A stretch of DNA of 4,850 nucleotides, from IMG/VR virus record IMGVR_UViG_2778261251_000003, one strand, 5' to 3'. The notes beneath the pieces are model-generated. The model was not told where the DNA came from. It was given only the letters and a program-made list of their open reading frames with translations, and ran no database searches. Each line of letters begins with the position of its first letter. The stretch's first letter is position 1. A program made the position numbers and the translations under genes. Shown piece by piece: positions 23-4,850 of this stretch. Source of the DNA: a virus. Its lineage: Duplodnaviria > Heunggongvirae > Uroviricota > Caudoviricetes.

Positions 23-337
23 TTATTTATCAGATGTTAGATTGTAATAATTGGTATAAGCTGAAATTGACTTCTGGCATGCTTCAAGAAATTCCTGTGG
101 ATTCATTCCTAGTCTTGCTTGCTCTGTGGTCAGAAAACGCTGTAAGAACTCATCTCCGCCAGGCATTTTTGTTGATTCTTGAAATGTTGCCATTTGTTTG
201 ATTGTGCCGCACATGCCAGCAAATTTCGAAGTTATCATGAGTTCTTGCAGGCCTTTAAGATCGCCATTATCTGATTTTGGTTTGGCGAAAACTATTGTAG
301 AGAAGAACAATATTAACAAAATAGCGATACGTTTCAT
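23..337 (-). CDS. hypothetical small secreted protein (104 aa precursor, about 86 aa mature) with Sec-type signal peptide; function unknown
   Basis: ORF track 23..337 minus. N-terminus MKRIAILLILFFSTIVFA-KPK has a basic n-region, hydrophobic core and V-F-A cleavage-type motif, with no lipobox Cys. Two Cys in the mature part (C43, C87). Its ATG (337-335) overlaps the mnt stop (336-334) as ATGA, implying translational coupling. No family recognised from memory. Confidence 0.6.
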   Translation of the reverse strand: MKRIAILLILFFSTIVFAKPKSDNGDLKGLQELMITSKFAGMCGTIKQMATFQESTKMPGGDEFLQRFLTTEQARLGMNPQEFLEACQKSISAYTNYYNLTSDK

Positions 338-585
338 TTTTCACTGTTGCCATGCATACATTTTAACTTCTCAACCTCATGCTCAAGCTCTATCAACCGC
401 GATGCTATAGTTGCAAGATCTAGTGCTTGAATATGTTTATTTTTTTCAGTCCATGCCTCAAGTGCTGCTACCATCTCAGCATTTAATGAACGAGAATTAG
501 CCTCAGCCAGTTCAATAAGACGTTCCTTTATCTCTACAGGAAGCCTCAGATTCACTTGAGGGTTTTTGTACTTACGATCAGACAT
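334..585 (-). CDS. mnt: Mnt-like ribbon-helix-helix transcriptional repressor (83 aa from ATG at 585-583; the ORF track's GTG at 591 would give 85 aa)
   Basis: Translation ...NPQVNLRLPVEIKERLIELAEANSRSLNAEMVAALEAW... aligns with my recollection of P22 Mnt (…HFNFRMPMEVREKLKFRAEANGRSMNSELLQIVQDAL…), including the RHH beta-strand and ANGRS motif. AGGA Shine-Dalgarno complement at 594-597, about 8 nt upstream of the ATG. 83 aa matches P22 Mnt length. Divergent from arc-ant as in P22 immI. Confidence 0.8.
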   Translation of the reverse strand: MSDRKYKNPQVNLRLPVEIKERLIELAEANSRSLNAEMVAALEAWTEKNKHIQALDLATIASRLIELEHEVEKLKCMHGNSEK

Positions 586-613
586 CGGCACATCCTGAAT
601 AATTTTTTACCAC

Positions 614-660: not shown

Positions 661-678
661 GTATGCGTACCACATACA
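642..678. promoter_or_regulatory. candidate operator sites: 9 bp direct repeat ATGCGTACC (642-650 and 663-671) and imperfect 19 bp palindrome TGTATGcgtaccaCATACA (660-678) over the Pant -10/start region
   Basis: The exact 9 bp repeat occurs twice, 21 bp apart (two helical turns), bracketing the Pant -10. The second copy lies inside an inverted repeat with 6 bp arms TGTATG/CATACA. The position matches where Oarc and Omnt sit at P22 Pant, but the sequence differs from the P22 operators as I recall them. Confidence 0.35.
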
Positions 679-689
679 AAGGAGCAAAA

Positions 690-836
690 ATGAAAGTTAA
701 GACATTAAGGATGCCAGAATGGCTGGAAAAGGCTTTGGAGCAGTCCGCGAAAAAGGATGATCGGTCGTTCAGTAATGAGGTATTGAGGAGACTAAAGGAG
801 TCAGTAGCTAAGGATGGAATTGTTTGTCCAGAATGA
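690..836 (+). CDS. arc: Arc-like ribbon-helix-helix repressor (48 aa)
   Basis: Absent from the ORF track because it is under 60 aa. Hand translation: MKVKTLRMPEWLEKALEQSAKKDDRSFSNEVLRRLKESVAKDGIVCPE, stop TGA at 834-836. Aligns with recalled P22 Arc (…NLRWPREVLDLVRKVAEENGRSVNSEIYQRVMESFKKEG…), sharing L-R-x-P, RS-x-N-xE and R-x-x-ES-x-K-xG. Strong RBS AAGGAG 5 nt upstream. Sits immediately upstream of ant as in P22. Confidence 0.75.
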   Translation: MKVKTLRMPEWLEKALEQSAKKDDRSFSNEVLRRLKESVAKDGIVCPE

Positions 837-902: not shown

Positions 903-1832
903 ATGAAAAGTATAGCAACAGCAGTATCTACTATCAACGTGCCATTCCACGGCGCAGAGCTTTATGTCGTCAATCACAACGGTGAGCCGTACACCCCAAT
1001 GAAACCTATCGTTGAAGGTATGGGTATGGATTGGGCTTCACAGTTTACGAAAATAAAGCAACGGTTTAAAACCTCCATTGTGAAAATCACAATGCAGCTT
1101 CCTGGTGATGAACAGTGCCGTGAGATTATTTGTTTGGCACTTCGCAAACTTGCTGGCTGGCTGCAAACCATCAGTCCAAACAAAGTCCGCCCTGAAATCC
1201 GCGACAAGGTAATCCAGTATCAGGAAGAGTGTGACGATGTGCTCTACGAGTACTGGACTAAAGGCCATGTAGTTAACCCACGCAAAGCTAAAAAGGCGTT
1301 GCCGGGTAAAATCACCACTGAACAGCAGGAAGCCATTAAACAACTCGTCATGAGTCGCGGTCAGTCTCTGCCAAAAGAAAAACAGGCGAAGGCAATGATT
1401 ACCATGTGGTCGTCGCTGAAATCTCATTTTGGGTGTTCATACAAAGAAATCAGCGATGAGCAGTTTACCGAAGCTCTGTCACTTGCAGCTCGCGTTCCGC
1501 TTGAAGGCGAGTTAATCGGCAAACAAGAGAAGAAAGCAAACGAGCTTTCTGCAAAAGAAGCAAACAGCCTTGTATGGTTATGGGATTATGCCAACCGCTC
1601 ACAGGCATTATTCCGCGAACTGTATCCGGCGCTAAAACAAATTCAATCGAACTATTCAGGCAGATGTCATGACTGTGGTTATGAGTTCTCCCGTATTATC
1701 GATATGGCGAGAGACGTTTTAATCAATCACTCACGAGATGTTGATATCAATGAGCCAGACGGACCAACGAATCTTTCCGCATGGATGAGACTTAAGAATA
1801 AAAAATTACCTCCTTCAGTACATAACTACTGA
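903..1832 (+). CDS. ant: phage antirepressor Ant (309 aa)
   Basis: ORF track 903..1832. N-terminus (…INVPFHGAELYVVNHNGEPYTPMKPIVEGMGMDWASQF…) resembles the phage antirepressor N-terminal domain. Length close to P22 Ant (about 300 aa). Position after arc and before the tailspike matches P22 immI. RBS TGAGGA 888-893. Confidence 0.85.
   Translation: MKSIATAVSTINVPFHGAELYVVNHNGEPYTPMKPIVEGMGMDWASQFTKIKQRFKTSIVKITMQLPGDEQCREIICLALRKLAGWLQTISPNKVRPEIRDKVIQYQEECDDVLYEYWTKGHVVNPRKAKKALPGKITTEQQEAIKQLVMSRGQSLPKEKQAKAMITMWSSLKSHFGCSYKEISDEQFTEALSLAARVPLEGELIGKQEKKANELSAKEANSLVWLWDYANRSQALFRELYPALKQIQSNYSGRCHDCGYEFSRIIDMARDVLINHSRDVDINEPDGPTNLSAWMRLKNKKLPPSVHNY
909..937 (-). promoter_or_regulatory. candidate Psar promoter (minus strand) within the first codons of ant
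   Basis: Minus-strand -35 TTGATA (937-932), exact 17 bp spacer, -10 TATACT (914-909). One of the best sigma70 matches in the window, oriented antisense to ant. Confidence 0.45.
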
Positions 1833-1850
1833 CAGATAACCAACGCAACG

Positions 1851-1874
1851 ACCCAGCTTCGGCTGGGTTTTTTT
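1851..1874 (+). terminator. rho-independent terminator downstream of ant
   Basis: Stem CCCAGC (1852-1857) / GCTGGG (1862-1867) with TTCG tetraloop (1858-1861), followed by a run of seven T (1868-1874). Lies 19 nt after the ant stop. Confidence 0.75.
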
Positions 1875-1932
1875 ATACCCAAAATTCACCGTAGCCACGC
1901 TGCGGCGATTCCTTGCATCTGGAGCAAATTAA

Positions 1933-2271
1933 ATGACAGACATTACAGCCAATGTGATTGTATCTATGCCTTCGCAACTCTTCACTATGGCGCGTTCTTT
2001 TAAAGCGGTTGCCAATGGCAAAATTTATATCGGTAAAATTGACACTGACCCGGTAAATCCTGAAAACCAGATTCAGGTTTATGTGGAGAACGAAGACGGT
2101 TCTCACGTTCCTGTTTCGCAACCAATCATCATTAACGCTGCTGGATATCCGGTATATAACGGACAGATTGCCAAGTTCGTAACTGAGCAAGGCCATTCCA
2201 TGGCTGTATATGATGCGTATGGTGCGAAGCAGTTCTATTTTCCTAATGTGCTGAAGTATGACCCTGACCAA
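1933..2271 (+). other. tailspike N-terminal head-binding (particle-attachment) domain, ending at the conserved YDPDQ junction
   Basis: Residues 1-113; similarity to recalled P22-family tailspike N-termini stops just after YDPDQ (aa 109-113), the usual module-exchange boundary. Confidence 0.7.
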
Positions 2272-4062
2272 TTTCAGTTCACGCTCTCGTCAGACACTGG
2301 CGCAAATCTTGTCGGCATCAAGAGAACTGGACTGCCAAATAATAACTCTACTACTGTTGGTGCTTACTATCAGACAACACCTATCAACGCGGTAACAGAT
2401 TACGGAATGAAAGGGGATTTCGACCCGTCAACTGGATTTGTTAACGGAACGAATAACCGTTCTGCACTTCAACAATTGATGGATGATCTGGTAAATATCG
2501 GTGGAAACAAAACTGTAACCATTCCTCCGGGTAACTATTACTTCAACTTTGACGGTAGCACTAATCCTGGTGGTGTTGGGGTTATGTGGGGAAGGGTCGG
2601 TGCAGGGTTAAAGAATGTCACATTCCTGTGCTATGGCGCCACATTTTACTCTGGGAGCATTGGCAGACTTAACGGCATATTCAGCGCTAATTATGGTGTA
2701 AGGATAAAAGGCTTGAGAGTGATAGGGTTCGGCGGCGGAACGCTCGCTCCTTCACGAGAAAGGGATGCTATCTTTGCTCTTGCCTACAACTGCTGTGGGG
2801 TAACATTTGATGAGTGTTACTTTGCTAACAGCATGGGGGACTGCGTTTATCTTGGTGGCAGTCTTGATGACGGCTCTATAACTGGATTATTTTGCAGGGA
2901 TATCGCTTTTAATGGCTGTACTTTAAAAGAAAGATACGGGGATGGTATTAGATCTTACTACAGCGGATCTAGGTCAAGGATGGCTATTGCTGTTATCGAC
3001 TGCGTTGGTCTCAGGATTGATAACTGCAAAATAGTAGGCGGAATAGACTTCGAACCAAACGCAACAAACCAGCGCCTGCAGAATATGATGGTAGGTAATA
3101 CCAGGTTCCATGCAGGAAATGTCCTTGCATACACTGGAACAAACCCATTTTACGAGGAGCAAATCAATAGCGGAACTCAGGTTATACGTGGAGACATCCG
3201 ATTCCAGACGCGAGCGGGTGGGGTCATCACTCAGAATATTCATATATCTAACGTATCATTCGACTACGGATGCATCAGGCAGACATCTCTTGGTATAGCT
3301 GACGTTATTTATGAAAACATAAGAATGCGCAGGGGTATATTGGTGGTTGGTTCTGACTCAGGCACAAACTTCAACCCATCTGCAAACTTCAATGATGTTT
3401 ATGTTGATCTGGCTCTTAACGGTTCAGATGATGATATCTTTGAGTTGAATGGGTCAGGCACAACACCTCCTACATTGCCAGCAGTAGTCATGTTGATACA
3501 GGGAAATCTTACATACGCAAGATTTAATGGGATAAGTGGAGGGAATACCATCGGTGCATTTAGTTACCTGTTTTATGCAGATCCAACACACACAGCTGGT
3601 GATGCGGGGAGGAGCATTTACGCAAACTGCAGCATACTTGGCGGTAACCTTTACAACTACACTATCCCGGATAGCAGTCAGGAACTTGGAAACACATCTA
3701 TGCCAGCCTCCGGAGTTGCCTTTACAAAATACCGTAGGATTAATACTGACCTAATCATGCAGTCGGTTGGTGCTCTAAGCATATCCGCAAGCGGTTCAAT
3801 AGACTGGAACGCATTCAGAACAAGCAAATTGGCAGTAACTGCTACCACTACAGGCCTGCAAATATCAGGGATTGTTAATGGCCCTATGGTTGGTGCTGAG
3901 GTTCAGATAAGGAATAGTGGATCAAACCCCATAATTCTGGCTCACAGTACATCTTTCTATCTTAAAGGAACAACTAGTGCCACCCTTGACGATACGAGAA
4001 AGGTGGTGACGTTCCAGTACATCTCTTCAGGAGTATGGACGGAGATATACCGGAACTTTTAA
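1933..4062 (+). CDS. tailspike protein (709 aa): P22-gp9-family N-terminal head-binding domain plus a putative beta-helix receptor-binding/glycan-depolymerase body of unassigned specificity
   Basis: ORF track 1933..4062. RBS GGAG at 1921-1924. First ~113 aa ([43 protein letters not shown]…NVLKYDPDQ) closely match the conserved head-binding domain of P22/Sf6/HK620-type tailspikes as I recall them. The remainder is Gly/Asn/Ser/Thr-rich with repetitive short-strand character typical of parallel beta-helix tailspikes, but I do not recognise it as the P22, Sf6 or HK620 body. Confidence 0.9.
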
Positions 4063-4099
4063 TCAGTGTCCATGGATGGCCATCTTTCACCAGTTATCT

Positions 4100-4464
4100 T
4101 CATTTCCCATCCCTAAAGACAATGAACTTTTAATAGACGAAACCGCACACCAGACTGATGGCGGAGAAGGTGATAAGAGTGACAATTGGAGGAAGTGCGC
4201 ATCTATCAGCAGCCCATCCAATAGTAGCACTCAGTGTCCCCATGAACCCGACATATAACATGTAGCGCATCGTTGTAGTCGATGTTTTGAATGTGAATCT
4301 TGCATTCGCGAAGAAGCTAAAGCTCACAGCCACAACGAAACCTGCGAAGTTTGCCAAAGCCTGATTGGTATGCTCGGCATAGATACATACACCAAAAACC
4401 ACCCAGTGTATAAGTGTGTTCAGCACACCAATCGAGGTGTGTACTTTGCAAATAGCTTTAACAT
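4100..4464 (-). pseudogene. gtrA: gtrA (bactoprenol-linked glucose translocase of O-antigen glucosylation operons), disrupted by a +2 frameshift and an in-frame stop
   Basis: Minus strand: ATG at 4464-4462 encodes MLKLFAKYT then hits TGA (4422-4420). The -1 frame continues SIGVLNTLIHWVVFGVCIY… (ORF track 4130..4426) to TAA at 4132-4130, after which the same frame reads KFIVFRDGK to a stop at 4102-4100. Joined, this gives a 120 aa GtrA-like protein matching my recollection of SfV/P22 GtrA. Span is 365 nt = 363 + 2. The frame switch maps to the GTGTGT tract at 4437-4442. Confidence 0.6.
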
Positions 4465-4850
4465 TTCTTATATCAGGTAATAATCAAAGTCATGAAGTCT
4501 ATCATCCAAGTCTCAATCGATCGATGACTTGCTGTGGTTGATGAGACAAAACTGATGCACACAAAGCTTTGCGCTGGATTGCAAGGCTTTGTACTCTTCG
4601 ATAGTGGTTAAGGCGGTTCACTCCACCTTTTCATCAATCCAGTCCGCCCACCACTGCATCATTTCTCTGCGCTTATCGTGGCAGATGCCTCACTATCACA
4701 CGGTGATGGTTCATTACTGGTTTGCATAATGGATAGAGAACTGAGGATAAAAGATATCCCAAAACCCAAAAATTGTTCTTGCCCCCTTATTTCCAGACAG
4801 GGGTTGTATCTTAAGTTAACATTACCCGCTGACGTCGATATTCTCGCGGA

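Follow-up and report, generated by a model that had tools for sequence, protein, structure and literature searches.

A mosaic tailspike gene of a P22-like Escherichia coli prophage joins a conserved head-binding domain to a rare, predicted beta-helix body

The locus described here raises the question of what a P22-type tailspike would recognise, and how it would act, when its conserved head-binding domain is joined to a body unlike those of P22, Sf6 and HK620. The window corresponds to one entire draft contig, NODR01000134.1 (4,850 bp), from the E. coli assembly GCA_002517595.1, and its features are collected in Table 1. Our preferred reading, to which we assign a probability of about 0.7, is that the gene encodes a trimeric, depolymerising tailspike of the P22 type with a swapped body, and that its target is most likely the O-antigen of the host.

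The tailspike gene is complete, and the preliminary description had placed it exactly (1933..4062, + strand, 709 aa). It lies downstream of a terminator-like hairpin, which occupies the same relative place as t_ant in the P22 annotation, and the gene order of the window is that of the P22 immI-gene 9 arrangement, with Mnt-like, Arc-like and Ant genes before the tailspike. The identical 709-aa protein was found on 12 contigs and is named 'phage head-binding domain-containing protein [Escherichia coli]' by NCBI (WP_244572155.1, STE71519.1). Besides GCA_002517595.1, carriers of this allele are GCA_002925925.1, GCA_002233385.1, the assembly with STE71519.1, and the runs SRR7871404, ERR3831510 and SRR1816606. 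In contigs L001-L003 homologues of gp4, gp10, gp26, gp14, gp7, gp20 and gp16, all of them intact, are found upstream of the identical tailspike gene, and in the longer contigs that encode this protein the end of the prophage adjoins dacD-sbmC-yeeA. The gene occupies the position of a P22-like tailspike gene, at the end of the virion module and after the ejection-protein genes and mnt-arc-ant, and it encodes the spike of a temperate podovirus of P22-like (Lederbergvirus) type that is integrated in E. coli.

Table 1. Features of the 4,850-bp window, with residue numbers of the full 709-aa protein.
Feature	Position	Strand	Evidence or remark
Signal-peptide protein, 104 aa	23-337	-	
Mnt/Arc-family repressor gene	334-591	-	
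Arc-like gene	663-836	+	
Antirepressor gene ant	903-1832	+	PF10547, PF10548
Strong terminator-like hairpin and T-run, 3' of ant	1850..1878	+	8-bp stem (1850-1869), 5 GC pairs
Shine-Dalgarno GGAG, 8 nt 5' of ATG 1933	1921..1924	+	Direct reading of sequence
Complete tailspike gene, P22 gene 9 homologue, ATG start, 709 aa and stop	1933..4062	+	
Head-binding (virion-attachment) domain, aa 1-113, ends in conserved KYDPDQ	1933..2271	+	PF09008, BLASTP, PDB matches
Left recombination junction, where DNA similarity with the tailspike genes of other P22-like phages stops	2264..2277	+	Homology ends, DNA alignment
Linker/neck, aa 114-147, predicted disordered	2272..2373	+	pLDDT about 40, body residues 1-34
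Cap helix and right-handed parallel beta-helix, aa 148-588, presumed polysaccharide-binding/catalytic domain	2374..3696	+	
Internal recombination patch, codons 277-592	2762..3707	+	130 nt differences vs sister allele P0001/L024
Motif Y-x-x-N-S-(L/M)-G-D-C-(I/V)-Y, aa 296-306	2818..2850	+	N299, G302 nearly invariant
Motif L-K-E-R-Y-G-(N/D)-G, aa 331-338	2923..2946	+	K332, R334, G336 nearly invariant
Motif I-(Y/V)-G-x-I-D-(L/F)-E-P-N, aa 367-376	3031..3060	+	G369, E374 invariant; D372, N376 nearly invariant
Loop, family consensus Y-W-Y-D-E-P, here PFYEEQ, aa 405-410	3145..3162	+	E409 invariant
Low-confidence loop between helix and C-terminal domain, aa 589-610	3697..3762	+	pLDDT 30-54, body residues 476-497
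C-terminal beta-sandwich domain, aa 611-709	3763..4059	+	AF2 strands pLDDT 80-91; sub-threshold PF25692
Downstream DNA travelling with body	4063..4540	.	Similarity to same-site prophages resumes at 4541 (EC17GD31) or 4610 (ET245)
gtrA pseudogene, remnant of O-antigen glucosylation operon	4109..4465	-	tblastn with P22 GtrA/GtrB; PF04138

The head-binding domain matched the Pfam Head_binding profile (PF09008) over its whole length (residues 1-113 aligned to all 113 profile positions, E=3.5e-65). By BLASTP it was 94.7% identical to the domain of HK620, 92.0% to that of Sf6 and 74.3% to that of P22, and phmmer matched it to PDB entries 7sg7, 2xc1, 8tvr and 1lkt. The profile match and the 74-95% identity agree with the earlier assignment of these residues to the P22/Sf6/HK620 type, and it is via this conserved domain that a P22-type tail hub receives the spike. 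The length of about 710 aa given for the HK620 tailspike in the preliminary description was also accurate (710 aa, against 709 here). A megablast search against 50,697 phage records matched only gene positions 1-345, and in a multiple DNA alignment all the comparators were near-identical through TATGACCCTGACCAATT (the YDPDQ codons) and unrelated from nt ~2271-2274 onwards. Both the extent of the megablast match and the alignment bear out the junction at YDPDQ (about nt 2271) proposed in the preliminary description.

The bodies of the P22 and Sf6 tailspikes are endorhamnosidases and that of HK620 is an endo-N-acetylglucosaminidase. BLASTP of residues 114-709 against these three tailspikes gave nothing significant (E=0.016 for HK620 over 148 aa, 0.33 for Sf6 and 1.1 for P22), and the body is as unlike theirs as had been supposed. 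The preliminary description of the mosaic was thus borne out on every point, and chance does not account for the pattern. When all PDB sequences were searched with phmmer, the alignments were confined to the N-terminal domain and no solved-structure relative of the body was found. The Sf6 alignment continued weakly to about residue 218, an extension that appears to reflect a generic beta-helix cap motif, because the family profile also matches this motif in Sf6. Two family profiles (A1 and A2) run against all PDB sequences matched only anchor domains and the cap motif ('dfGAvGDG...aiq.A...vP.G.Y'), which is also found in PfbA, iota-carrageenase and GH110. No family for the body was present in Pfam, PHROG or NCBIfam, where the only matches were sub-threshold: PF12708 at the cap (E=0.6, 10.3 bits, cut-off 27) and PF25692 (Phage_depo_C) at the C-terminus (E=2.5e-4, 21.4-21.9 bits, cut-off 25). 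Among relatives, PF12708 was matched by 7 of 16 at E<=1 (best 0.0034) and PF25692 by 13 of 16 (best E=1.9e-6), while PF13229 was matched in one.

Two known enzyme classes were considered and rejected. GH28 (polygalacturonase-like) was dismissed as neither a PF00295 match nor the ordered motifs NTD / (G/Q)DD / G-x-HG / RIK were found, and AlgE-type mannuronan C-5 epimerases and related lyases as the motif YG(F/I)DPH(D/E) and sequence homology were absent. Judged by these comparisons, the body is not of P22, Sf6 or HK620 type, nor GH28, nor AlgE-type. The phage protein database contained no protein more than 40% identical to the body, and its relatives there were three records only, TR1 and vB_EcoS_IME542, at 40% identity. 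A characterised tailspike highly identical to residues 114-709, a possibility that the preliminary description had left room for, was not found in these searches, the closest phage-database proteins being the unstudied ones of TR1 and IME542. Among GTDB species representatives there was a single match, on a 46.7-kb contig labelled Nitratidesulfovibrio liaohensis with identity (40%) and coverage equal to those of TR1 and IME542; it was set aside as probably a T1-like coliphage contaminant. A literature search on the accessions of the protein returned no papers.

The body is rare. It was absent from 5,426 complete E. coli genomes even at a blastn word size of 11, and the flanking prophage DNA is present in thousands of these genomes. 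It was found in 15 clusters among 5.8 billion 90%-identity clusters, and its relatives at E<=0.001 comprised 71 representatives among 1.84 billion 50%-identity clusters. The same body, with a common start boundary, is joined to no fewer than six N-terminal anchors that are unrelated to one another (the PF09008 head-binding domain, the PF18668 tail-spike anchor, a 123-aa Pseudomonas type, a 110-aa type, a 24-aa stub and others of 134-391 aa) and is found in phages of Escherichia, Enterobacter, Obesumbacterium and Pseudomonas. Its genomic contexts are a siphovirus-type prophage of Escherichia marmotae, in which two Acyl_transf_3 genes follow the homologue, a P22-type virion module adjoining ERF/SSB/helicase genes, a small integrase-AlpA-capsid island in P. 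aeruginosa, and T1-like phages (Drexlerviridae). Since relatives with 56-59% identity occur in Pseudomonas aeruginosa, the module extends beyond enterobacterial O-antigens.

Prophages that are otherwise 92-97% identical carry different bodies between the same breakpoints, and other bodies are also found in prophages of this chromosomal site whose upstream DNA is 94-96% identical. Together with the occurrence of one body, with one boundary, on at least six anchors, this shows cassette exchange directly: recombination with its left junction at the conserved YDPDQ codons has replaced the receptor-binding module, and the horizontal exchange that had been suspected is borne out. Modular exchange of tailspike receptor-binding domains has already been catalogued systematically (PMC10408124). 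The mosaic tailspike is a new example of a textbook host-specificity swap, and leaves the understanding of tailspike modularity unchanged.

The AlphaFold2 (AF2) model of the body, built as a single chain with 15 homologues (mean pLDDT 80.8; body numbering plus 113 gives that of the full protein), is a right-handed parallel beta-helix with a beta-sandwich-like C-terminus. In body numbering the cap helix spans residues 63-76, short strands typical of a parallel beta-helix extend from about 80 to 475, and the beta-rich C-terminal domain covers 500-596. The predicted linker opens with the motif L-x-x-L-x-x-x-x-G-x-x-LVG, which is common to homologues with other anchors. An epimerase, lyases and hydrolases were the top structural neighbours, and many capsule depolymerases were among the others, all at 11-17% identity; Foldseek searches of the PDB and BFVD likewise returned exclusively beta-helix proteins. 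On the predicted model the C-terminal receptor-binding part is a beta-helix, as in P22-like tailspikes, and the alternative of another fold, raised at the outset, did not materialise.

Residue conservation was counted over 57-85 aligned relatives. Conserved charged residues are concentrated in aa 296-410 (Table 1), with D303 present in 60 of 76 aligned relatives and the loop at aa 405-410 lying within a long strand-free insertion of the helix. The conserved motifs are spaced 23-30 residues apart and lie at strand ends in the AF2 model, which suggests that the conserved residues line one face of consecutive coils, like the active sites of beta-helix glycanases; this stacking is read from the spacing and the strand pattern. 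The acidic residues of the motif at aa 367-376 are candidate catalytic acids, and the catalytic centre is probably formed by D303, K332, R334, D372, E374 and E409 on successive coils in the proximal half of the helix. The chemistry is ambiguous, because the top structural neighbours comprise an epimerase as well as lyases and hydrolases, the signature motifs of AlgE and GH28 are absent, and either a hydrolase or a lyase that binds uronate could make use of the K-x-R pair. It is possible, though we do not favour it, that the body is a polysaccharide lyase acting by beta-elimination on a uronic-acid-containing glycan and not a glycoside hydrolase, a reading that fits either an O-antigen or a capsular receptor. 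Across the family, charged residues are strongly conserved within a compact stretch, which argues against a beta-helix that only binds its glycan without cleaving it, as a non-enzymatic, adhesin-like spike; to our knowledge all characterised P22-family tailspikes are enzymes, and we consider such a spike quite improbable.

A sister allele of the gene (P0001, on contig L024; run SRR8989446) provides a view of variation inside the body. Codons 1-276 and 593-709 are identical in the two alleles, and the contig differs from the window flanks at 4 positions in 2.5 kb (4 in ~3,700 aligned nt outside the patch). Over the block of codons 271-600 the alleles gave dS=0.53, dN=0.061 and dN/dS=0.12, and because this ratio is low, purifying selection is indicated for both versions of the patch, which have been kept functional. 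The same value bears on whether the tailspike gene might be a relic, now functionless and decaying in a defective prophage. The adjacent gtrA is indeed a pseudogene with gtrB and gtrC gone, and a draft contig of 4.85 kb leaves room for an incomplete prophage in this strain. Against this, the 709-codon reading frame is intact, there are identical copies of the protein on 12 contigs, dN/dS is low between alleles, and the upstream virion genes are intact in L001-L003. The relic reading was rejected on the first three of these grounds, and we hold it to be very improbable.

The E. marmotae homologue is 75-95% identical to the protein over aa 121-360 and only 22-52% identical over aa 361-640, so that the helix has its conserved core in the proximal half and varies mainly in the distal one. 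The distal half (aa ~380-600) corresponds to the internal recombination patch and would probably tune substrate specificity, and the two patch alleles are a natural pair for asking which part of the beta-helix sets it. A wider proposal, which we put forward only tentatively and regard as doubtful, is that the body and the 71 cluster representatives constitute an undescribed family of polysaccharide-degrading enzymes with its own catalytic constellation (N299/D303, K332-x-R334, D372-x-E374-P-N and E409, unrelated in sequence to GH28, PL families and AlgE). Such a family would move between phages of Enterobacteriaceae and Pseudomonas and satellite-like islands, and in addition to swaps of the entire module at the anchor junction it would exchange its distal half alone as a specificity cassette.

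In the mechanism that we propose for a depolymerising P22-type tailspike, the protein would form a homotrimer, by analogy with P22, Sf6 and HK620, with the N-domain docking the spike to the tail and the groove of the beta-helix binding and cleaving repeating units of the host surface polysaccharide. The conserved cluster of acidic and basic residues would do the chemistry and the distal helix would set substrate preference. The substrate is most probably the O-antigen displayed by the prophage's own host, a rare E. coli lineage, and by cleaving it the virion would make its way to the outer membrane.

The O-antigen is the likeliest substrate because Lederbergvirus tailspikes mostly target it, because O-antigen-modifying genes adjoin the module, and because there is the O104 precedent considered below. 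According to published work, the usual targets of P22-like tailspikes are O-antigen or K antigen, and most of the characterised ones act on O-antigen (PMC11990801). The modifying genes are the gtrA remnant in the window and the two acyltransferase genes beside the E. marmotae homologue. The remnant is 77% identical to residues 8-118 of P22 GtrA and carries a premature stop and a 5' frameshift; it was examined by tblastn with P22 GtrA and GtrB, and neither gtrB nor gtrC accompanies it.

A tailspike of the same architecture might instead target a capsule (K antigen) or other exopolysaccharide, as does the K1 endosialidase tailspike of CUS-3, in which a head-binding domain with 93.8% DNA identity is joined to a capsule-specific body. 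Capsule-targeting Lederbergviruses are known from the literature (PMC11990801), the weak C-terminal match is to PF25692, a domain named from capsule depolymerases, and capsule depolymerases are numerous among the structural neighbours. We nevertheless consider a capsular target rather unlikely, as the neighbouring conversion genes, both here and beside the homologue, are O-antigen modifiers and characterised P22-like tailspikes are mostly directed at O-antigen (PMC11990801, PMC3303846). PDB, phage-database and profile searches also gave no similarity to endosialidase or known K-specific enzymes. Against the O-antigen reading, in turn, stand the relatives in P. aeruginosa and the 40% relatives of the body in T1-like phages whose isolation host was E. 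coli BL21(DE3). This strain is not known to make O-antigen; in the T1-like phages the module is either dispensable or has another target.

The tailspike of a prophage is a reagent that comes ready-made and is highly specific for the surface sugar of the host. The body family is small and is without a solved structure or family model, and naming its glycan would add one receptor-binding type to the catalogue that serves the prediction of host range, reagents for serotyping and the engineering of pyocins or phages.

Among known systems, HK620 gp9, Sf6 gp14 and P22 gp9 are like the protein described here in head-binding domain, gene position and YDPDQ boundary, and their layout, in which a beta-helix body leads into a beta domain at the C-terminus, is the one predicted for it. 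The 825-aa 'tail fiber protein' of TR1 and vB_EcoS_IME542 is 40% identical over body residues 7-596 and shares the C-terminal ...W(T/S)E(I/V)(Y/S)RNF end. It differs in having another anchor, of 224 aa, a siphovirus context (Drexlerviridae) and no assigned function, and IME542 is predicted to use LptD via a separate receptor-binding protein (PMC13035648). The A-module of the mannuronan C-5 epimerase AlgE4 (2PYG) and the polysaccharide lyase RbmB (9OZD) are pectate-lyase-like beta-helix enzymes with 13-15% identity to the body; both are non-phage proteins that lack the anchor and the C-terminal sandwich, and the AlgE catalytic motif is missing here. The tailspike of the E. coli O104:H4 prophage, the basis of pyocin AvR2-104.1 and specific for the O104 antigen of its own host (PMC3303846), has the same layout of 113 conserved residues followed by a novel C-terminus. 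Its gene too belongs to a P22-like prophage, and a gene for O-antigen modification follows directly after it (PMC3303846). The O104:H4 protein has 659 aa and a specificity established by experiment, whereas the protein described here has 709 aa and is known from its sequence; that precedent was made into a serogroup-specific killing protein within weeks.

The exchange of modules in this prophage is not confined to the tailspike. Contigs that encode an identical tailspike fall into two groups when compared with the window. L002 and L003 match it at 99.98% throughout, and in L001, L004 and L006 similarity starts only at nt 1499, within the antirepressor gene ant, leaving nt 1-1498 unmatched. The latter contigs carry mnt/arc repressor alleles unlike those of the window and an Ant protein of 300 aa. 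The immunity-I region is thus a mosaic as well, and its breakpoint falls midway through ant.

Features of the window and of homologous loci
Feature	Location	Strand	Remarks
ORF of 104 aa	window 23-337	-	obvious N-terminal signal peptide (MKRIAILLILFFSTIVFA...); matches phrog_19844
gtrA pseudogene	window 4109-4465	-	77% identity to P22 GtrA residues 8-118
Compact island, about 8.6 kb	L011:1-8613		Logan ERR13421796_154; protein named as Pseudomonas aeruginosa
Homologous tailspike locus, E. marmotae-type prophage	L012:10001-15395

The segment exchanged along with the tailspike body includes a gtrA remnant, the end of which is separated by some 45 nt from the stop codon of the tailspike gene. It has a frameshift directly behind the ATG at 4465 and an in-frame stop nine codons short of the normal end, and both gtrB and gtrC are missing. 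The O-antigen glucosylation (seroconversion) operon has been lost by deletion in this prophage. In the E. marmotae-type prophage, the tailspike has a PF18668 anchor and is 58% identical overall to that of the window (75-95% across aa 121-360). Behind it, two Acyl_transf_3 genes lie on the other strand; they probably encode O-antigen acetyltransferases for seroconversion.

The prophage end adjoins dacD-sbmC-yeeA...cobUST in several strains (L001/L002:12131-22130, L009), and related prophages with other tailspikes are located at argW beside intS. On the K-12 map, some 20 kb separate dacD from the his-gnd-O-antigen cluster, and the prophage could therefore conceivably be transferred jointly with the O-antigen locus that it targets.

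Homologues of the tailspike body also occur in other settings. The island in the table encodes, in order, a tyrosine integrase, a 191-aa ORF, AlpA, several small ORFs, an HK97-type capsid protein, two small ORFs and a 721-aa tailspike with a body 59% identical to that of the window, and is immediately succeeded by ordinary genes of the chromosome. It appears to be a phage satellite that brings both a capsid gene and a tailspike of its own. Among GTDB species representatives, the sole match was a contig labelled Nitratidesulfovibrio liaohensis XJ01 (L007, NZ_VSMK01000220.1), at 40% identity. Its match covers query residues 7-596, as do those of the T1-like phages TR1 and IME542, and its size (46,669 bp) is near that of IME542 (46,553 bp), which suggests that it is a T1-like coliphage contaminant in the N. 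liaohensis assembly.

The 104-aa ORF matched a family of unknown function (E=7e-64) and gave no match in Pfam and NCBIfam searches. Because it adjoins mnt, at the place held in P22 by orf59a and sieA, it may encode a periplasmic or exclusion factor expressed by the prophage.
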